From contig NJBF01000009.1 of assembly GCA_003144275.1 (NCBI GenBank), forward strand, positions 1-7,642: DNA of 7,642 bases, given 5' to 3'. The position numbers and the translations under genes are program-made. The DNA is from Candidatus Heimdallarchaeota archaeon B3_Heim (lineage in GTDB: Archaea; Asgardarchaeota; Heimdallarchaeia; Hodarchaeales; Hodarchaeaceae). The notes beneath the pieces are model-generated. The model saw nothing but the letters and a program-made list of their open reading frames with translations. It was not told where the DNA came from and made no database searches. Shown piece after piece: positions 1-7,642 of the stretch (the first letter of the stretch is position 1; every line of letters starts with the position of its first letter).

Positions 1-92
1 TTTGCACAGGTACATAAATCCATAAAAATGGGCCGGGGTTTCATCTGCATACGGATAGTCAATTGTGGTTGAGGGTGTTTTTTGGTGCGCAT
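1..92 (-). CDS. Possible 5' end of a gene running off the window edge (MRTKKHPQPQLTIRMQMKPRPIFMDLCTCA...)
   Basis: ATG at 92, a purine-rich GAGTGGGA just upstream and a TATA-like CTTATAAG at 119-126. The frame is open to the window edge, but a second frame is also open and no domain is recognisable. Confidence 0.25.
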   Translation of the reverse strand, partial: MRTKKHPQPQLTIRMQMKPRPIFMDLCTCA

Positions 93-215
93 TCCCACTC
101 TTTTAGGGAGCTTCCCCTCTTATAAGTTTGTAACCGAGAGAGAGCGGTGAAAATGACGAATATGACGAAAATCAACGCTTCTGTTTTTCGAAAAGTAATA
201 AGTTGTCGGACAAAT

Positions 216-1202
216 TCAACCATGGGCTTGTATCAAAAGAACTGAACTCATAGGAATAGTAATAGGTCTTTTTGAAGCTTTTCCAGCCAATACGACAAAT
301 AATTGATCATCTTCAGAATCAATTCTTTCTATATGTGCTTTTTGCCCTCTATAGGGTCCATCAACAATTTTAATTAAATCGTTGACATGGAGACCCTTTT
401 CAAGAGTTTTTTTGATATGTGCAAACGTTTTTATTCCAAATCGCAAATGAATGCGGAAATTCAAACGTCTCTCTGGTATTCCCATGAAAATTTGTTTTTG
501 TAATCCACGGAGGATCGATAAATCAGATAATGAGTCAGTTAAAGCCCGGATTGTCGGGTATTCAGAGATTTGACTCTCTATTGTATCTAGATCAACAGAA
601 TTAGCATTATTGGATGCTGAGTATACCATGTTTAAATTCTTTGTATCAGAAATTTGTGCCTGATCGACATACGTTTGAAAAGAAAAGCGAGATGTTAGTA
701 ATGGTGGAATTATTCGATCTAGAGAACTAAACAAATGGATAAGTGACAATGGAGATCGGGGATTATGGCTTTCCAAAATTAAACGTTTTCTGCACAATAG
801 TAATTCAACAAGTTTTGATGGTATTGGTAAAGGCTCAATACTCTCAAAATCATCATACTGAAGAAGACGATTTCCTGCTACCGCTAAGCTATTATTAAAT
901 AATGGTGAAATAAAATATAAGGCTGATTTTTCGTTATAGAGGGAATTATCAATAATTAATGTATGCGTCTTTATTGCTTTTCTACCAAATTGATCAGTAC
1001 CATCATCAAAAGTAAATCTCAAACCAATTTTTCCTGAACTATGCAGAAATTTTGTCAAATATACCTCATTGAATTTGCTGGGAGGTTTTTTGGGTATATA
1101 TTGCGATAAATCTTGGATCTGACTTTTTGTAATCGTCGCAGCTACAACATCCAAACCCTTTGGGGGATTATTCCTCACAATTACCTGATGAATGCTAGTC
1201 AT
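216..1202 (-). CDS. DENN/GAP1-like GTPase-associated protein with a C-terminal Spt5/NusG-like KOW domain (328 aa)
   Basis: N-terminal DGTDQFGRKAIKTHTLII resembles the D-x-x-G-R...H motif of GAP1-N/uDENN-like domains. Middle ELLLCRKRLILES...LDRIIPPLLTSRFSFQTY resembles cDENN/GAP1-M. aa 270-325 (GLHVNDLIKIVDGPYRGQKAHIERID...RPITIPMSSV) match the archaeal Spt5 KOW pattern. The gene starts 26 bp after the GTPase stop. Confidence 0.7.
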   Translation of the reverse strand: MTSIHQVIVRNNPPKGLDVVAATITKSQIQDLSQYIPKKPPSKFNEVYLTKFLHSSGKIGLRFTFDDGTDQFGRKAIKTHTLIIDNSLYNEKSALYFISPLFNNSLAVAGNRLLQYDDFESIEPLPIPSKLVELLLCRKRLILESHNPRSPLSLIHLFSSLDRIIPPLLTSRFSFQTYVDQAQISDTKNLNMVYSASNNANSVDLDTIESQISEYPTIRALTDSLSDLSILRGLQKQIFMGIPERRLNFRIHLRFGIKTFAHIKKTLEKGLHVNDLIKIVDGPYRGQKAHIERIDSEDDQLFVVLAGKASKRPITIPMSSVLLIQAHG

Positions 1203-1228
1203 AGACAGTCCAGTTCATTAATGCTACT

Positions 1229-1855
1229 TTAATACAAAGCTTGTTTACACTTCTCAAATATATAATCAATTTTTTCGTAAGGAGAGTCTTGAACACTAAT
1301 ATATACTCGTTCAAATACAGCAAAAGGAAATGTCATCTTGAAATCCTTGATGACAGTTTCAAAATTGTCTAAAAATTTGCTAGCTTGGGTTTCATCATAG
1401 TTTATTGTATCTATCTTATTGACTACGAAGACGAACAAGGTTTTCTTTTTTCGTGCTTTCTTATCGGCTTTATCTGGATCCAAACTTAAACTATCAAGGA
1501 AATAATTAAATGAATCTTCCATAGCAACACGTTGAGCTTCCACAGGTTGAGAAGGATCAAGCATAAAGAGAATTCCATCAGTTTTATATCTACGCATGGC
1601 TTCACGCCATTTTCGTCTTAATTTAAAGTCACCAGGATTATCTACAGCAATAATATTGTATTTACGATAACGTTCTAATGAAATTTTTGATTGTTTGGCC
1701 GCAGATAAAAGAACCATTTTTTTTTTCTCAATAACAATATCCATCGTCTTTTCAGTGGCTGCGGAGTCCTCGCCCTTTAATCTTTTTATCAGACTAGTCT
1801 TCCCAACGCCAGTGTGCCCTAAAATAGTCAATCTAATGTCTCTATCTAGTACCAT
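1229..1855 (-). CDS. Small Ras-superfamily GTPase, Arf-like (208 aa)
   Basis: G1 GHTGVGKTS, G2 TEKT, G3 DNPG followed by Arf-like FKLRRKW, G4 NKID and a degenerate G5 ISVQ. SD-like AGGGTGG lies 6 nt before the ATG. Confidence 0.9.
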   Translation of the reverse strand: MVLDRDIRLTILGHTGVGKTSLIKRLKGEDSAATEKTMDIVIEKKKMVLLSAAKQSKISLERYRKYNIIAVDNPGDFKLRRKWREAMRRYKTDGILFMLDPSQPVEAQRVAMEDSFNYFLDSLSLDPDKADKKARKKKTLFVFVVNKIDTINYDETQASKFLDNFETVIKDFKMTFPFAVFERVYISVQDSPYEKIDYIFEKCKQALY

Positions 1856-1861
1856 GAGTAG

Positions 1862-1868
1862 CCACCCT
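1862..1868 (-). promoter_or_regulatory. Shine-Dalgarno-like site of the GTPase gene
   Basis: AGGGTGG on the minus strand, 6 nt upstream of ATG 1855. Confidence 0.6.
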
Positions 1869-1877
1869 ATAGTAAAG

Positions 1878-1913
1878 GGCAGAAGAACTCATTAAAAAGT
1901 AAGTTCCTCTGCC
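1878..1913 (-). promoter_or_regulatory. 12-bp stem-loop in the presumed 5' leader of the GTPase operon
   Basis: Minus strand GGCAGAGGAACU-N12-AGUUCUUCUGCC. The single imperfection is a G.U wobble on the minus-strand RNA but an A.C mismatch on the plus-strand RNA. Confidence 0.6.
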
Positions 1914-1954
1914 ATAATCGTGATGAAAGCTACTAATAAGACTAACCTTATTGA

Positions 1955-2110
1955 TTAAATTACGGCTCTCAAATCAGGGAATATGGAAGACAAAAAGAAA
2001 GAATTGTACAATGGTATGAATTCGCTAATTTACTTAGAAATAACCTTTCACACAATTATTAGACAAGAGATATAGCTAGAGAAAAATTAAACTCTTTTTA
2101 GCTAATATAA
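1955..2110 (+). pseudogene. Possible decayed HEPN-domain fragment
   Basis: The frame reads LNYGSQIREYGRQKERIVQWYEFANLLRNNLSHNY*TRDIAREKLNSF*LI*. It contains an R-X4-H (RNxxxHxY) motif followed by a helix-like segment. There is no start codon and there are several stops. Confidence 0.25.
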
Positions 2111-2216
2111 ACAAGATAGTTAAAATCATAAAAAGAAGGCTTTAACATTGCAAAATCAAAGGCATTCAAAAGATATTATTCTTAAGTAACAATGGACTAA
2201 TAATTCAGGGAATATG
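1974..2216 (+). repeat. 12-bp direct repeat TCAGGGAATATG (1974-1985 and 2205-2216)
   Basis: Two exact copies 231 bp apart in the long intergenic gap. The repeat is seen directly; its function is unknown. Confidence 0.4.
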
Positions 2217-2546
2217 AAAGCGAAATACATGATCGGGGTACAATAACTCTCATTAATCAAAAATTTATGCCTTAATACAAAAATTAGGCTGACTCTAGCG
2301 AATTTACTCAAGGAAATTTGGTGAAAAAGGCAATTGAGTCAAAATACCCTCGAAGAGAAGGTTTTAAGCAAACTTTCGAGTTTAGGGAACTTACCCCTAA
2401 CTTCGCCATGAACGAGTACAAATAGTGGATATGTGGACGAATTTCGATATTGTGAGGTAAGGGCACAATTACTGAATCAGGCGAAAACAAGATAAAAATA
2501 AAAAGCCTTTTAAACATGAAGCTAGCCAATCTCTTCGTAAGAAACC

Positions 2547-2567
2547 TTCGGTACATCTCATACCGAA
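2547..2567. promoter_or_regulatory. Inverted repeat TTCGGTA-N7-TACCGAA, candidate operator
   Basis: Perfect 7-bp arms about 30 bp upstream of the TATA-like box of the AbrB/ACT gene. Confidence 0.45.
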
Positions 2568-2597
2568 AACACTTTCAAACATCGGAATACTCCCTAA

Positions 2598-2607
2598 TAA
2601 ATATAAA
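2598..2607 (+). promoter_or_regulatory. Archaeal TATA-like box (TAAATATAAA)
   Basis: Starts 33 bp upstream of ATG 2631. The same TAAATATAA motif starts 32 bp upstream of ATG 6063. Confidence 0.6.
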
Positions 2608-2630
2608 TTACGTGGAGGCATAAATTTAGA

Positions 2631-3053
2631 ATGTCTGCAGTCACAATAGCAAAAATGATCCAATTACAAGAATCAAAACCCATATCACTACCCGCAGATT
2701 TCCTGGAAACTTTGCGACCGAAAGATGTGGAGGAAAGCTCAGCAGTTATGATCCTAGCCCCTTCAACCAAAATTATCAGGATTATACCAACAAAAAGCCC
2801 TGAAGTGGTAAAAGTAGCCATTGAAATCGGTGAATTATCACCTGACTTTTTACAGGAACTGGGCGTAGTGTTCATGCGTAGTAAGATCAAGACGTTATAC
2901 AGTACAGGTCTGTGTTTCACACAGGATTCATGTACTTACGAGGGTTACCTCGATTCTAGCGACTTGACTATCTCACGAGACCAACTCCAAGACGAATTAA
3001 AGGAAATCAAGGGTGTAAGCAAGGTCGATATCACGACTTTGACCGCTGCTTAG
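2631..3053 (+). CDS. AbrB/SpoVT-like N-terminal plus ACT-like C-terminal domain protein, probable regulator (140 aa)
   Basis: N-terminal ISLPADFLETL resembles the AbrB I-x-I-P-x-E/D-x-x-x-x-L motif. The C-terminal beta-alpha-beta-beta-alpha-beta pattern ends in ACT-typical ELKEIKGVSKVDI and includes YSTGLCFTQDSCTYEGY. Confidence 0.7.
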   Translation: MSAVTIAKMIQLQESKPISLPADFLETLRPKDVEESSAVMILAPSTKIIRIIPTKSPEVVKVAIEIGELSPDFLQELGVVFMRSKIKTLYSTGLCFTQDSCTYEGYLDSSDLTISRDQLQDELKEIKGVSKVDITTLTAA

Positions 3054-3064
3054 ATTCCCGTTCG

Positions 3065-3079
3065 TCCCTTCCTCTTTTT
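3065..3079 (+). terminator. Pyrimidine/oligo-T tract, candidate archaeal terminator
   Basis: TCCCTTCCTCTTTTT begins 11 bp after the 3053 stop. Confidence 0.35.
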
Positions 3080-3256
3080 ATAGTTATAATCATCTAAAAG
3101 CGTTTTTCGGGTTATTAGTGTAAGCTTTACCCCCATTTTTTTCATTTCTTACAAATTTTTTTAATTGATCGATCTTTTACCATTTTCATTATAGATTTGA
3201 ATCGAAAACTCAAGAATTGGAGTTTAATCAGTCCAATCTAGCAGTGGTGAGAAAAA

Positions 3257-4123
3257 TTGGAGGATTTGATAGATTTGCTCCCAAAAATAATCGAAGCAAT
3301 TACACCTTTACTGATTATTATATGTTTGTTAATTCTAATCTGGTTAAGTGGAGTATTCCTTAAATCTTTTATTAGAAGGCTTCCAAAAATTCCTCCTGGT
3401 GGCAAAAATGCTCTTAATCTAGTAATTAGTATTACTCAAATTCTCATTTTTGGTTTTGTCATGTTTACAATCCTAGGAGCTAGTCAAGAAGTGATATTAG
3501 GCTTTTCTGCAATATTAGCTACAGTTGTTGGATTTGCCTCAACTTCAATCGCAACAAACGTATATGGAGGACTTTATTTAATCACAACAAGGCCGTTTCG
3601 TGTCGGCGATTTAATTCAGGCTCAAGAAGCCATTGGAATTGTTGAAGAAATTGGTTTAACCTTTACACGAATTGTACAACTAGATAAAACGATTGTAATA
3701 ATCCCTAATAGTAATTTACTAAACTTTTCGTTATTAAATTACAGCATACGATCACCTTCAGATCAGGAAAAGCAGGAAGGGATGATAACTGCGCGAGATG
3801 CAATTAAAGTAATTTCTACTGAATTATATTTTGATTCACGTTATACTAAATTGAGAAGACTGATCCAACTACAGCTAAATGCAGTTACACCTCCAATTTC
3901 TCTTACAGAAGTTAATAAGCGTTTGAAAAAAGTGTGTGAAAAATTCGCCCCAATCTTTGGTCAAGAGCCAACATACTATTTTGGAAAAAGCGATTATCGT
4001 CAAAATACCTATCTACTAATTACCGCACCAGACGCCTATACCATTTTTAATACATGGCCATATTTAATGGAGTCGATAATGGAAACAGTGTTTGTTGAAC
4101 TCCAGGAGGGAGCGTTGAATTGA
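3257..4123 (+). CDS. mscS: MscS-family mechanosensitive channel protein, paralog 1 (288 aa, TTG start)
   Basis: Three N-terminal hydrophobic segments, ATN..G....RPFRVGDLI, GIVEEIGLTFTRIVQLDKTIVIIPNSNL. A GGTGA SD lies 6 nt before the TTG. Confidence 0.9.
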   Translation: MEDLIDLLPKIIEAITPLLIIICLLILIWLSGVFLKSFIRRLPKIPPGGKNALNLVISITQILIFGFVMFTILGASQEVILGFSAILATVVGFASTSIATNVYGGLYLITTRPFRVGDLIQAQEAIGIVEEIGLTFTRIVQLDKTIVIIPNSNLLNFSLLNYSIRSPSDQEKQEGMITARDAIKVISTELYFDSRYTKLRRLIQLQLNAVTPPISLTEVNKRLKKVCEKFAPIFGQEPTYYFGKSDYRQNTYLLITAPDAYTIFNTWPYLMESIMETVFVELQEGALN

Positions 4124-4962
4124 TTCTTGCCTCATTTATTGATACTTTGACCCCAGAATTTAAATTTCTTTTTTTTATTCTAATAGTAATAGCTCTTCTC
4201 ATTATAAACTGGATTATTCAGTTTTTTCTTTCATTTCAACTTCGTAAAATTAGTAGAGTTCCCTTAGACATAGTAAATCTAATTAAAATATTTTCCAAAC
4301 TTATCACTGCACTATCAATCCTTTTTTCAATAATGGCCATCTATGGCCTTTCAGTAGAGGGAATTATCGGAGTTTCAGCGTTTTTAGGTGCAATAGTTTC
4401 ATTTGGTTCTACTCAAATGCTCAGCAATCTCTTTGTAGGTGTCTATATAATTTTTATAAGGCCTTTTGGGGTTGATGACTTTATTGCCGTTGGTAATGAA
4501 GTGCGTGGCCAGGTTGTAGAAATTTCATTAAACTATACCAAAATTAGAACAATTAACAATATTTTTCACTACATCCCAAACAAAAACTTCATGAATTCTA
4601 ATATTACACTCTATAAACAAAAAGTTGAGCGTCGAATTGGGAATACAGAGGCTCAAGCTATACAAGCTAAAAAGTCCAAGATACGAAGTATCAGATCCTT
4701 TGCGATGCAGTTGATTGAAGAAGAAGTGGTACGCTATACATTCATTTGGGGTGCTCCATTGGGAGATTTAAAAACGACAAAAGAGAAAATTCAAGAGGTT
4801 TGTGACATATATACAGGAGTATTTGGTTATAAGCCCGAATTTTTCCTCTATTCGCTAGATTATCGAATGCAGTTTAAGATAATAATTACTACCCATAGTA
4901 CAGAGCTTTTGCTCAAAAATATCATGATTTTTCGTAATGAAATAGTTGCACGTTTCCATTAG
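4120..4962 (+). CDS. mscS: MscS-family mechanosensitive channel protein, paralog 2 (280 aa, TTG start overlapping the upstream TGA)
   Basis: LSNLFVGVYIIFIRPFGVDDFI, GQVVEISLNYTKIRTINNIFHYIPNKNF. There is a TTGA start/stop overlap and a GGAGG upstream. Confidence 0.9.
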   Translation: MILASFIDTLTPEFKFLFFILIVIALLIINWIIQFFLSFQLRKISRVPLDIVNLIKIFSKLITALSILFSIMAIYGLSVEGIIGVSAFLGAIVSFGSTQMLSNLFVGVYIIFIRPFGVDDFIAVGNEVRGQVVEISLNYTKIRTINNIFHYIPNKNFMNSNITLYKQKVERRIGNTEAQAIQAKKSKIRSIRSFAMQLIEEEVVRYTFIWGAPLGDLKTTKEKIQEVCDIYTGVFGYKPEFFLYSLDYRMQFKIIITTHSTELLLKNIMIFRNEIVARFH

Positions 4963-4966
4963 GCTC

Positions 4967-5863
4967 TCAAGAAATAGATAGAATAAATGGTGTTAACAGA
5001 TCTCGAACTAGTTTTCCAGCTTTTTTTGAGTTCCACTTAAGTAGATCCATATGTGTAGCACTTGGAACAGTCAGGTTTGTGGCATGCTTTAATGGTACGC
5101 TTGAAGCATCTACAACTCCATCATTGGGGATCATTCCTACATGTAGATATGGGAATTTTCGGTTTATCCAGAATTTTCTGAAGAGAAGAGGTTGCCAAAC
5201 AGACTGTAATAGTCCAGAGGAATTTAATCCTCTCACCGTGAACCATTTTATAGATTTTTCTTCTTCTGTTAAGTTTTTATTGAGGTCAACAAGAAATTTA
5301 GACGTAGGTACCATTTGGATAAACTGAGATTTCAGAATCTGCCAATCACTCATACTCACTCCACCTCTGGGCAATTCCAGTGCTAAATTCAATCCTGTCA
5401 AAAGAATGTCTGTTGGAATATTGATTATCCGTTGTGCAAGCCTTGTTCCATGATTAGGTGTTCCTAGCAAGAAAATTCTGGAAAACCGGTATTTCCTGTC
5501 TTTAAAGGGAGCCAGATATTTGATCATTGCTCGTGTGACCAAACCCCCCATTGAATGGGCAAAAATATCGATACAAACTGGAGATGGGTGATCCTGAATT
5601 GATGAATTTATTAGATTAAGGAAATGATTGGATAACGTCTGTTCCGTTCCTGGATCGTAGATTGGAGTTTTCAAATCATAAGGACGACTGAAATCCAATC
5701 CGTATTTTGAGTTATAGTAAGATACATTTACTATATCGTCATATATATTAGGTAAAGAGGAACATGCTAGACATTTCTCGATTTCACCCATAAAACCTCT
5801 TTTTCCAGCAAAACCATGAACGAGAATTGCTATACGATCACAAGTTTTGGAGGTAACGCTCAT
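4967..5863 (-). CDS. Alpha/beta-fold hydrolase, lipase/esterase-like (298 aa)
   Basis: Oxyanion motif LVHGF, nucleophile elbow AHSMGG (S104), LLGTPNHG, NDGVV (D248) and a C-terminal His (H271). No signal peptide is evident. Confidence 0.9.
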   Translation of the reverse strand: MSVTSKTCDRIAILVHGFAGKRGFMGEIEKCLACSSLPNIYDDIVNVSYYNSKYGLDFSRPYDLKTPIYDPGTEQTLSNHFLNLINSSIQDHPSPVCIDIFAHSMGGLVTRAMIKYLAPFKDRKYRFSRIFLLGTPNHGTRLAQRIINIPTDILLTGLNLALELPRGGVSMSDWQILKSQFIQMVPTSKFLVDLNKNLTEEEKSIKWFTVRGLNSSGLLQSVWQPLLFRKFWINRKFPYLHVGMIPNDGVVDASSVPLKHATNLTVPSATHMDLLKWNSKKAGKLVRDLLTPFILSIS

Positions 5864-6002
5864 AACGTAACTAAGAGGACCTAAAATTTTAAGTGTGTCG
5901 GATCAAAAATGAAAATGAAGAAAAATTATCTATCGAAAATAAATTTCAGAAGTAACTAATTACACTCGATGAAGTAGAAATTCCTGTGAAAAACATTAAT
6001 TA

Positions 6003-6025
6003 AATATGCATCTTCTCTGCATATT
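6003..6025. promoter_or_regulatory. Inverted repeat AATATGCA-N7-TGCATATT, candidate operator in the divergent hydrolase/wHTH promoter region
   Basis: Perfect 8-bp arms ending 5 bp before the TATA-like box at 6031. Confidence 0.5.
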
Positions 6026-6030
6026 AATCA

Positions 6031-6039
6031 TAAATATAA
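6031..6039 (+). promoter_or_regulatory. Archaeal TATA-like box (TAAATATAA)
   Basis: Starts 32 bp upstream of ATG 6063, with the same motif and spacing as at 2598. Confidence 0.6.
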
Positions 6040-6062
6040 TCAACTTAGGGTATGATTTCCTT

Positions 6063-6740
6063 ATGGCATTTAGTGCGGATGAGACCGAGAGCCTTAGCTT
6101 GTTGTTACATCCCGTACGCCGGAAAATTTACTCCATCTTAGCTGAAAACCCAGGATCATATTTTTTTGATTTAGCAAAATTCCTTGAACTGCCTCAAGGG
6201 ACTCTTAATTGGCATTTAAAGCGTCTTGAGGAAGATTCTTTGATTAAATCTATCAAATATGCAGGTAAACGAGTTTATTATCCTGCAGGCCTTCGATCAG
6301 CTGAAGCCGAACGAATTTATACAATTCTTCGTCCTCCTACTGCCAGTAAGATTTTTACTTATGTTCTAAATCATCCTGGATCATTTCAGAGTCAAATAGC
6401 CCAAGGGATCAAACCTTCAGTACATCATGATACCGTTCGTTATCACCTGACCCGCCTAGAAGATGTTGGTTTAATTGAAACAAAACGAAGTGGACGAACA
6501 GTCCAAATTTTTCCCGGAGAGGTTGCAGAAAATTTACAAAATGGATCCTTAACCGCTATCTCTGATTCTTATGTACATTTTTTATTAGAAAAGTTACGAG
6601 AAGGATGTCTCCATCCTGAAGTTGTGTTAAAAAGCAAAAAACAACTAGTCCTGCGTGTGGAATGTCCAAATGGAGAAGATATGATATTAAATTTTAAGAT
6701 GAGTGATTGGCAGTTATTTACTCCCAGTGAAGAGGAATAA
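6063..6740 (+). CDS. Tandem winged-helix (ArsR-like, COG3398-like) transcriptional regulator with a C-terminal extension (225 aa from the likely start MAFSAD...)
   Basis: Two repeats: HPVRRKIYSILAENPG...GTLNWHLKRLEEDSLI and PPTASKIFTYVLNHPG...DTVRYHLTRLEDVGLI. The start is moved from 6006 to 6063 because the first 19 codons overlap the inverted repeat and TATA box. Confidence 0.85.
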   Translation: MAFSADETESLSLLLHPVRRKIYSILAENPGSYFFDLAKFLELPQGTLNWHLKRLEEDSLIKSIKYAGKRVYYPAGLRSAEAERIYTILRPPTASKIFTYVLNHPGSFQSQIAQGIKPSVHHDTVRYHLTRLEDVGLIETKRSGRTVQIFPGEVAENLQNGSLTAISDSYVHFLLEKLREGCLHPEVVLKSKKQLVLRVECPNGEDMILNFKMSDWQLFTPSEEE

Positions 6741-6867
6741 CTTCTTTAATTAGTTTTTAACGAGCTTTCTCATCTATATTAACAAATGGTTGTTGATTAT
6801 TCTGGTAATCCAATCTCCATATTGAATATTTTTCTCTTTCAATAATTTCACTAAGGATTTGCAACGA

Positions 6868-7608
6868 ATGGCCTCTCGATTTGATTCGAAAACTTATGTG
6901 CTGAACCAATTCAATGCCCTTGCGAGTAAATATTTCCCTCAGGAATATATGCGCGTGAATAGTGGGAAAAAAGGTTATCGTTTAAGTGATGGTACACAAA
7001 ATTTAATTGAAAAAGCGAAAACTATTGTCAATCGAGCTGAAGAAAGCCGTGAGACTATTCCACACTCAACCACCAATATCTACAAGTATGGGGTAGTCTT
7101 CCAAAAAATCTTTGAGGATTTAAGTCAGTTTCAAGCCCTTACTTCAGTAAAATCTCGTTCTCGAAGAGGTTATCGTAAAGAACTAGAGTTTATGGGATTT
7201 GATCTGAAAAAAATTGAATTAGAATTGAAGAAAAGCTCTAATCCTCCTGTAAAGAGTCAAAAGGATGAAAAATATGTACGAGATATTAAAAAACAATATA
7301 TTCAGATGGTTGTCGATGGAGAGTTCCAAAATCTCAAATCTGATATCGAGGAAAAAAAATCCTTGTTTATTCTGGAGAACTCTGTAGGGTATAAGTTTTT
7401 TGATATTCAAACTCGTCTCGTTACCTCCATTACTCAAAAGTTTGACCAATTAAGAAGGTTAAAGGATGAAAAAGAGAAAATAATCAATTCTCAAGAGACT
7501 TTTAGGACTAAGATAAAAGAAATTTCTCCCCAGATCCCCAAATATAAGGAAATCATACATATTCAGAAGAAAGCACTCGGAATTTACGAGAGGACAGACA
7601 AAAAATAG
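6868..7608 (+). CDS. Hypothetical basic, helical/coiled-coil-rich protein (about 246-249 aa; start TTG 6859 or ATG 6868)
   Basis: Long open frame with plausible protein composition (K/E-rich C-terminal half) and AAGGA upstream. No recognisable motif. Confidence 0.7.
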   Translation: MASRFDSKTYVLNQFNALASKYFPQEYMRVNSGKKGYRLSDGTQNLIEKAKTIVNRAEESRETIPHSTTNIYKYGVVFQKIFEDLSQFQALTSVKSRSRRGYRKELEFMGFDLKKIELELKKSSNPPVKSQKDEKYVRDIKKQYIQMVVDGEFQNLKSDIEEKKSLFILENSVGYKFFDIQTRLVTSITQKFDQLRRLKDEKEKIINSQETFRTKIKEISPQIPKYKEIIHIQKKALGIYERTDKK

Positions 7609-7642
7609 GAGATTCTAACAGATTCAGAACTTTCTATTTTTC

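Follow-up and report, generated by a model that had tools for sequence, protein, structure and literature searches.

DENN-type proteins encoded beside small GTPases have already been reported from Asgard archaea and were proposed to act as regulators there, and the genomes of the Heimdall group hold DENN paralogues with non-eukaryotic architectures, according to the available part of the preprint of Liu et al. (2021, bioRxiv 10.1101/2020.10.19.343400). In bacteria, the GAP1 proteins have three globular domains, are encoded downstream of a GTPase gene and carry variable output or effector domains fused at their C-terminus (Kaur et al. 2020, PMC7159879). Among the eukaryotic proteins, Avl9 and DENND6A were described as GTPase-activating proteins (GAPs), and a "DENN GAP" family was proposed for Avl9, DENND6A/B, DENND11, Afi1 and Anr2, which are monomeric and have an arginine in the longin beta4-beta5 loop (Vignogna and Fromme, bioRxiv 10.64898/2026.01.05.697756). 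In the longin GAPs FLCN, SMCR8 and NPRL2, the beta1-beta2 loop ends in a GP motif that adjoins the arginine finger (PMC12290439). The gene studied here belongs to Candidatus Heimdallarchaeota archaeon B3_Heim (Hodarchaeales; assembly GCA_003144275.1; genome of 3.9 Mb, 94% complete, with 3.9% estimated contamination) and lies in the first 7.6 kb of contig NJBF01000009.1 (positions 1 to 7,642, the whole stretch analysed, hereafter the window). Its product is almost certainly a true Spt5-type KOW domain joined to a DENN-like fold.

The gene (P0001; positions 216-1202 on the minus strand, with the stop codon at 216-218) encodes 328 amino acids (aa), as read from the open reading frame (ORF) and its translation. 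A compact tripartite DENN/GAP1-like module, delimited by the structure model and fold searches, occupies aa 1-268 (399-1202, minus), and the KOW domain occupies aa 270-325 (228-395, minus); nucleotides 395 to 228 translate into exactly these residues, as given in a preliminary description of the window that had been made from the sequence alone. On the minus strand, the gene of a 208-aa small GTPase (P0002; 1229-1855), upstream and co-oriented, comes first, followed by a gap of 26 nt and then by the DENN-KOW gene.

The Asgard host, the DENN-type fold and the adjacent small GTPase gene are held in common with the system of Liu et al., as far as the available part of that preprint describes it. 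However, the operon presented there has a LAMTOR1-like Roadblock gene, whereas none was recognised beside the present pair, no ORF of the window having matched Roadblock/LC7 in Pfam. The available text of the preprint, its figure 5b of DENN architectures aside, makes no mention of KOW, Spt5 or NusG. Together with SaeB, bacterial GAP1 of the DO-GTPase conflict systems gave the best fold matches overall to the DENN-like module, and the three-domain fold, the location downstream of a GTPase gene and the extra domain at the C-terminus agree as well. However, on the other hand, the partner here is a single-domain GTPase of the Ras superfamily and not a double GTPase, no GASH, FNIII or effector genes are found nearby, and the DENN-GTPase pair is syntenic, near-universal and single-copy in the order, whereas the DO-GTPase conflict systems are patchy. 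What is new in this locus is the KOW fusion and the pairing of an arginine like that of the DENN GAPs with a GTPase lacking the catalytic glutamine; the module class itself was already known. The preliminary description knew of no report of such a fusion, and none was found in a search of the full-text literature on KOW domains in connection with archaeal DENN proteins or Asgard small GTPases. The fusion is apparently undescribed.

The KOW domain and its fusion

When aa 255-328 were searched alone, the Pfam KOW family (PF00467) was matched with 24.8 bits (E 1.8e-5), above the gathering cut-off of 22.3; the full-length protein scored 21.5 bits, just below it, and the six-frame search of the genome gave 25.4 bits, again above it. 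The NCBIfam model of archaeal Spt5 (TIGR00405) was matched with E 1.6e-7 over about model positions 74-143, which is the KOW half only, and the score of 28-31 bits against a cut-off of 69.95 does not make the protein a member of the Spt5 family. The model of the ribosomal protein uL24 (rplX) reached only E 0.07 on the same region. In the sequence ranking of the PDB, Spt5 of Methanocaldococcus jannaschii came first (E 5e-7), with those of Pyrococcus furiosus and Thermococcus kodakarensis at about 3e-6, followed by eukaryotic SPT5 and bacterial NusG; every top match was Spt5 or NusG, and ribosomal KOW proteins, uL24 included, appeared only with E 0.2-0.5 in the family-profile search.

The structure of the whole protein was predicted with AlphaFold2 (AF2) from an alignment of 33 homologues, with a predicted local distance difference test score (pLDDT) of 90 and a predicted template modelling score (pTM) of 0.88; all structural statements below on the single chain refer to this model. 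The KOW region is modelled as a five-stranded SH3-like barrel (strands at aa 276-279, 288-295, 300-305, 314-317 and 321-325). It superposes in VIA-align on the Spt5 KOW of P. furiosus with Z 11.3, a root-mean-square deviation (rmsd) of 1.0 Å over 58 residues and 34% identity, and on Spt5 of M. jannaschii with Z 10.8; over the archaeal Spt5 structures compared (e.g., 3P8B, 4ZN1 and 9BCT), Z was 10.8-11.3, rmsd 1.0-1.3 Å and identity 26-34%. All 26 fused copies preserve the GPYRG loop after strand 1 in the form G-x-[FYH]-x-G, and the core common to the fused KOW and the Spt5 of Hodarchaeales reads G-L...D...I..GP.KG..A.I..I...V.L...SV.L.Q. No NGN domain precedes the KOW domain, as judged from the model and the TIGR00405 coverage; aa 228-269 are the final helices of the DENN-like module. 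Profile, PDB and fold matches hence agree with the preliminary description, which had named the C-terminal domain a Spt5/NusG-type KOW without NGN.

The same genome has a normal Spt5 on a different contig (93.1 bits with TIGR00405, above the cut-off), whose KOW is 33% identical to the fused one (E 7e-9). Because this Spt5 is retained elsewhere, the fused KOW is an extra copy of the domain and not a relocated Spt5. Unlike the KOW of archaeal Spt5, the fused KOW is accompanied by neither an NGN domain nor an Spt4 context, and its evolution is far faster.

A word-index search yielded 52 homologues of the protein, all from Asgard archaea of the Hodarchaeales/Heimdall group, and an exhaustive HMMER search over all lengths yielded 24 representatives; every homologue was of 353 aa or less. 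In the alignment, the KOW domain stands at the identical point, directly behind the last DENN helix, in 26 distinct orthologues from ENA, JGI, NCBI and Logan, in the same single frame and on contigs of up to 108 kb. About 30 close orthologues have no KOW and end four residues past the last DENN helix, usually in a Y-F tail (consensus N-Y-F), and eleven distant homologues have short basic tails only. The preliminary description had asked whether homologues of the N-terminal part exchange their C-terminal domain: forms with and without KOW do exist, but neither another C-terminal domain nor a longer fused form was found by the exhaustive HMMER search. Among 24 species genomes of Hodarchaeales, 22 gave a match, with the KOW form in six and the KOW-less form in twelve; of the remaining matches, one genome of the second family was partial and distant, and three genomes gave the Spt5 KOW only. 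When the KOW region alone was used in a word-index search, nothing beyond the closest orthologues was retrieved. One database source labels an orthologue "KOW motif-containing protein".

Two loci, one with the KOW domain (on a contig of 108 kb) and one lacking it (on a chromosome of 4.9 Mb), have the following neighbours in common: a helix-turn-helix (HTH) regulator, a 140-aa gene, the GTPase, an HhH-GPD glycosylase, a SIS protein, a Hel308-type helicase and MCM. A split gene, with a stand-alone KOW beside the KOW-less orthologues, was also considered and rejected, since with this query those genomes gave no KOW hits but their Spt5 genes, which lie elsewhere. At one KOW-less locus (L001) the gene is followed by an opposite-strand ORF of 71 aa that had no KOW match in a tblastn-type search, and throughout the related genomes the only other matches to the fused KOW were their Spt5 genes, with 33-38% identity.

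The fusion could in principle be an assembly chimera, or a mis-called gene in which a sequencing error has fused two genes, since the gene lies 215 nt from the contig end and the flank at 1-220 is not collinear with close relatives. However, collinearity breaks at nt 221, past the KOW domain and not at the junction near nt 398, and 26 independent orthologues have the fusion in a single frame. Moreover, contigs of three public sequencing runs from three independent studies (marine sediment and cold seep) span the junction with 97-98% identity. On the evidence of the orthologues, the species genomes and the bridging contigs, the chimera was rejected, and the chance that it is correct is negligible. 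The doubts raised in the preliminary description, i.e., that the region might not fold as a KOW/SH3-like domain, that the junction might be false and that the fusion might be unique to this contig, were all removed by the superposition on the P. furiosus domain, by the related genomes and independent contigs, and by the 26 orthologues and six of 24 species genomes, respectively. The observation itself is confirmed.

As a separate matter, the non-collinear flank (1-220, no strand assigned), which lies beyond the gene end and outside the KOW domain, was compared with a relative and with the run contigs. The likeness to a 97%-identical relative stops at nt 221, where contigs of two runs (X2 and X3) also diverge, and the contig of the third run (X1), which holds the flank, departs from the window after nt 224. 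The change affects no more than the final residue and the stop codon, the close relatives ending in ...AHEP and the present protein in ...AHG. The flank could have arisen by rearrangement at the strain level or by faulty joining at the contig end.

In the tree of the DENN part, the protein of the window fell inside a clade of 22 KOW-bearing sequences with a Shimodaira-Hasegawa-like approximate likelihood ratio (SH-aLRT) support of 100. Four divergent KOW-bearing sequences were located outside this main clade, one of them beside two KOW-less sequences, and the tree requires at least three changes of the KOW state; a single KOW-bearing clade was, however, not rejected by the approximately unbiased (AU) test (p 0.24). 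Within the main clade the ratio of nonsynonymous to synonymous substitutions (dN/dS) of the KOW domain was 0.13-0.31; relative to the DENN part, its dN was higher by a factor of about 1.5-2, and dS was near saturation in several pairs. These ratios show that the KOW domain is under purifying selection in a subset of Hodarchaeales. Pairwise identity among the Spt5 KOWs of 12 Hodarchaeales genomes was 82-100% (median 92%), whereas it was 22-97% (median 46%) among the fused KOWs and 27-41% between fused and Spt5 KOWs. Judged by these identities, the core of the fused KOW is kept but the constraint is much looser than for the Spt5 KOW.

A tree of the KOW domains was built from 26 fused KOWs, 14 Spt5 KOWs and the uL24, eS4 and UpxY KOWs of the same genome, with 61 columns. 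The distances between fused and Spt5 KOWs are far smaller than those separating either from the ribosomal KOWs, but the tree was not resolved and gave neither a donor nor an order of events; the branches of the ribosomal outgroup measured 7-9 changes per site. Long branches attract each other in trees.

The UpxY sequence in that tree comes from another contig of the same genome (C71:80-643; L006), on which a bacterial-type NusG paralogue of the UpxY family (166.5 bits against a cut-off of 100) stands beside a membrane protein gene. This contig is probably a bacterial contaminant; otherwise it would represent a transfer.

The DENN/GAP1-like module and the neighbouring GTPase

The N-terminal module is modelled in three lobes, i.e., a longin lobe (about aa 1-100), a central alpha/beta lobe (about aa 129-210) and a helical dDENN-like lobe (about aa 216-269). 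The longin lobe has the order b-b-a-b-b-b-a over aa 4-102, and the alpha/beta part and then the helices follow. In Foldseek searches of the PDB the whole module matched DENND1B-Rab35 (3tw8, E 8e-6) and DENND1A (6ekk), with E ranging from 8e-6 to 8e-5 and a probability of 1.00, and VIA-align gave Z 9.0-9.5, including DENND10 (Z 9.5 over 233 residues) and DENND1A (Z 9.4 over 253); the TM scores for the DENN fold were moderate (0.3-0.45). The best fold match in the Swiss-Prot part of AFDB was SaeB of Mycobacterium smegmatis (E 2e-9), and the top eukaryotic folds there were DENND11, DENND6B, Avl9, Afi1-like and Anr2 (E 1e-7 to 1e-5). Among the AFDB clusters, large bacterial proteins were matched over query residues 3-270, several of them named "GTPase-associated protein 1 N-terminal domain-containing" (E 1e-11 to 1e-8; template modelling (TM) score 0.41-0.52). 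By sequence, no Pfam or NCBIfam family was found on aa 1-268, and the family-profile search of the PDB returned KOW proteins only and no solved DENN protein. The feature search of the ESM Atlas gave no usable match, and the Atlas model of the protein was poor (pLDDT 0.39). The predicted structure has the tripartite DENN fold, and the label "DENN/GAP1-like" of the preliminary description is right at the fold level, whereas no sequence family was matched.

The SaeB match is also of note for that protein. SaeB is named "ESX-1 scaffolding and assembly protein" (A0QNH5 / L8FL04), and its N-terminal 340 residues match the DENN-like module, which suggests that SaeB may itself hold a GAP1/DENN-like module.

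The neighbouring GTPase matched the Pfam families Arf (26.6 bits, cut-off 22.3) and SRPRB (27.6 bits, cut-off 25). Its motifs are GHTGVGKT for G1, DNPGD for G3, without the catalytic glutamine, and NKID for G4; over 27 GTPase homologues P74, G75 and D76 of G3 are invariant and N73 varies to S or T. It is adjacent to the DENN-like gene in all 20 orthologous loci, with 76-98% identity, against 42-97% for the DENN-like partner, which diverges about three times faster. The GTPase carries two inserts rich in lysine and arginine.

A complex of the two proteins with GTP and Mg was modelled with a score of 0.64 (0.67, 0.61 and 0.64 in the runs), against 0.01 for the best of three controls. In the calibration of the method, 58 of 80 solved complexes reached this mark, as did two of 110 mismatched pairs, counts that are rough here because custom alignments and small molecules were used. 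At least 91% of the contacts were common to the runs, and the pLDDT of the partner was at least 87. On the DENN side the modelled interface comprises only the longin lobe (residues 11, 15-18, 30-33, 36-40, 42, 70, 72 and 74-76), and on the GTPase it comprises residues 15-16, 33-36, 38-39, 41, 76-79 and 81-82, which lie in the P-loop (15-16), switch I (33-41) and switch II (76-82). The best-defined contacts are those of R74 with GTPase residues 34-36 (expected error 1.8-2.2 Å) and of F72 with G16 of the P-loop; no KOW residue is among the confident contacts. The model suggests that the DENN-KOW protein probably binds the neighbouring GTPase.

R74 (codon at 981-983, minus strand), which on the strength of its invariant loop and the models is the candidate arginine finger, stands in the loop D70-x-x-G73-R74 between longin beta4 (aa 59-69) and beta5 (aa 75-84). 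D70, G73 and R74, as well as G16, L17 and D18, are invariant across the 33 aligned homologues. A conserved arginine in the beta4-beta5 loop, the mark of the proposed DENN GAPs, is hence present.

Some further observations concern the GTPase gene. Just upstream of its start codon is a hairpin of 14 pairs, six of them G-C (1878-1913, minus strand), which a terminator scan flagged in spite of its position in the 5' leader and not at a gene end. A paralogue of the GTPase with 224 aa, 52% identity and DNPGE as G3 is encoded on another contig of the same genome (C23:25759-26424; L041:1501-2175), between uvrB-like and uvrC-like genes; beside it, in the opposite orientation, is an unannotated gene of 274 aa. 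The paralogue has no DENN-like neighbour at that locus, which hence offers no second example of the pair.

Proposed regulation of the GTPase and possible role of the KOW domain

On balance it is rather likely that the gene product is a GTPase regulator with an added Spt5-derived KOW adaptor. It would regulate the GTPase encoded 26 nt upstream through its DENN/GAP1-like module; the longin lobe is predicted to clamp the P-loop, switch I and switch II, with the invariant Arg74 beside the P-loop and switch I, and the module could act as a GAP that supplies an arginine finger. This activity appears the most likely one because DNPGD replaces DxxGQ in the partner and because the nearest eukaryotic folds are DENN GAPs. 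With the DENN GAPs the module shares the arginine loop, and in the model the GTPase is placed on the longin surface with the arginine beside the P-loop and switch I. It differs from them in having no detectable sequence similarity, in its size (268 aa versus about 350-450 aa), in an Asgard partner GTPase without the catalytic glutamine and in the KOW domain, which those proteins do not have. The balance of the modelled evidence tips slightly toward a GAP over a guanine nucleotide exchange factor (GEF).

Several results weigh against this reading. The models do not decide between GAP and GEF, and classical DENN modules are GEFs. The fold scores over the whole module are moderate (TM 0.3-0.5, rmsd 5-10 Å), and neither the protein nor ten distant homologues matched DENN, uDENN, dDENN, Avl9, GAP1 or longin of Pfam at E up to 1. 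The beta1-beta2 loop, with the sequence N-N-P-P-K-G16-L17-D18, does not have the exact GP motif of the longin GAPs FLCN, SMCR8 and NPRL2: G16 is invariant and belongs to the modelled interface but is followed by leucine instead of proline. Since solved DENN-GTPase complexes exist, the complex score may partly reflect likeness to known structures. The KOW domain is dispensable for the core function, as about 30 orthologues do without it, and, evolving much faster than the Spt5 KOW, it need not bind any Spt5 partner.

The same architecture could also serve a GEF for the neighbouring GTPase, in the manner of DENND1-Rab35 and with the KOW domain still as an adaptor. The best matches among solved structures are the GEF domains of DENND1A/1B in complex with Rab35, proteins with longin and DENN modules are mostly GEFs (PMC12290439), and a GEF role was proposed for the Asgard DENN modules in the available part of Liu et al. 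(bioRxiv 10.1101/2020.10.19.343400). However, all three DENN lobes touch the GTPase in DENND1B-Rab35 (PMC3521125), whereas the interface modelled here uses the longin lobe alone (residues 11-76) and is centred on the invariant arginine of the beta4-beta5 loop. The partner lacking the catalytic glutamine and the proposed DENN GAPs being the top eukaryotic folds in the Swiss-Prot part of AFDB also argue against a GEF, which we regard as somewhat unlikely.

With the module taken as a GTPase regulator, the KOW domain may serve for targeting or as an adaptor, by which the regulator, alone or in complex with the GTPase, is brought to a ligand that is either a protein or RNA. It is read so because it is C-terminal, lies outside the confident contacts and occupies the position of the variable domains in bacterial GAP1; for this role of a targeting adaptor the chances appear to be even. 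Alternatively, it could have no outside ligand and act as a structural cap or an autoregulatory lid on the DENN-like module, replacing the aromatic tail. A fixed position of the KOW domain would fit the whole-chain pTM reported above, the KOW-less orthologues finish in the conserved Y-F tail exactly at the fusion point, and the fused KOW evolves fast. However, it keeps the G-x-[FYH]-x-G loop and the barrel core common to Spt5 and is under purifying selection, and KOW domains are, as is well established, usually intermolecular binders. A cap or lid is accordingly judged unlikely.

If an adaptor, the KOW domain could possibly have the transcription or translation machinery or a nucleic acid as its ligand, which its Spt5 origin makes the natural first guess. 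The preliminary description went further in proposing that it ties the switch to RNA polymerase, the ribosome or nascent RNA, or that it acts as a decoy or sensor for Spt5-targeting factors. On this view it would keep partners like those of Spt5 (RNA polymerase-associated factors such as FttA/aCPSF1, an archaeal termination factor, or else uS10 or nascent RNA) and so couple the switch to transcription or translation. Archaeal Spt5 is indeed the closest KOW class by TIGR00405 as against rplX and by the PDB matches, and Spt5 genes were the only other matches in related genomes. However, the contrast in identity between Spt5 and fused KOWs is unlike what a shared, constrained partner surface would give, and a gene pair whose syntenic position is the same in nearly all genomes does not resemble a variable defence island as a decoy would suggest. 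The fast evolution of the fused KOW argues against a full, tightly constrained set of Spt5 partners, and together with its absence from most orthologues it points to an accessory, lineage-specific connection and not to a copy of that set. Retention of Spt5-like partners is thus quite improbable. We are equally doubtful that the fused KOW recognises a component of gene expression (the ribosome or uS10, FttA/aCPSF1, RNA polymerase or nascent RNA) and thereby, in this lineage of Hodarchaeales, recruits the DENN-type GAP and its Arf/SR-beta-like GTPase to complexes engaged in transcription or translation. The interpretation offered in the preliminary description is, as a whole, partly supported.

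Should the recognition of such a component be true, transcription or translation would be physically and directly connected to a eukaryote-like small-GTPase switch in the archaea most closely related to eukaryotes. Asgard archaea have many small GTPases and longin/DENN-type proteins, but for hardly any of them is a partner or a cellular role known. The present locus offers a matched pair, a GTPase without the glutamine and a DENN-like protein with an invariant arginine, and the confident complex model makes this pair directly testable. Within the protein, only the KOW domain points beyond the pair, and its ligand could reveal the process under this conserved GTPase; the natural orthologues with and without KOW are a ready comparison. 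Moreover, the fold link between bacterial GAP1, the archaeal protein and the eukaryotic DENN GAPs bears on the origin of the DENN module.

Other genes of the window

Further genes of the window, as identified by a Pfam scan of its ORFs, include MscS channels, a hydrolase and an HTH regulator. The 140-aa gene mentioned above (2631-3053, plus strand) is divergent from the GTPase gene and is conserved in both KOW-bearing and KOW-less loci. It belongs to no Pfam family, and its nearest named Atlas clusters are of the type MazE/AbrB-plus-ACT, with a low score that makes them a lead only. It could be a local regulator and is not Roadblock-like in appearance.

Two neighbouring paralogues of the MscS-type channels (3257-4962, plus strand) overlap by 4 nt and both have TTG starts. 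The pair recurs at a related locus (L002).

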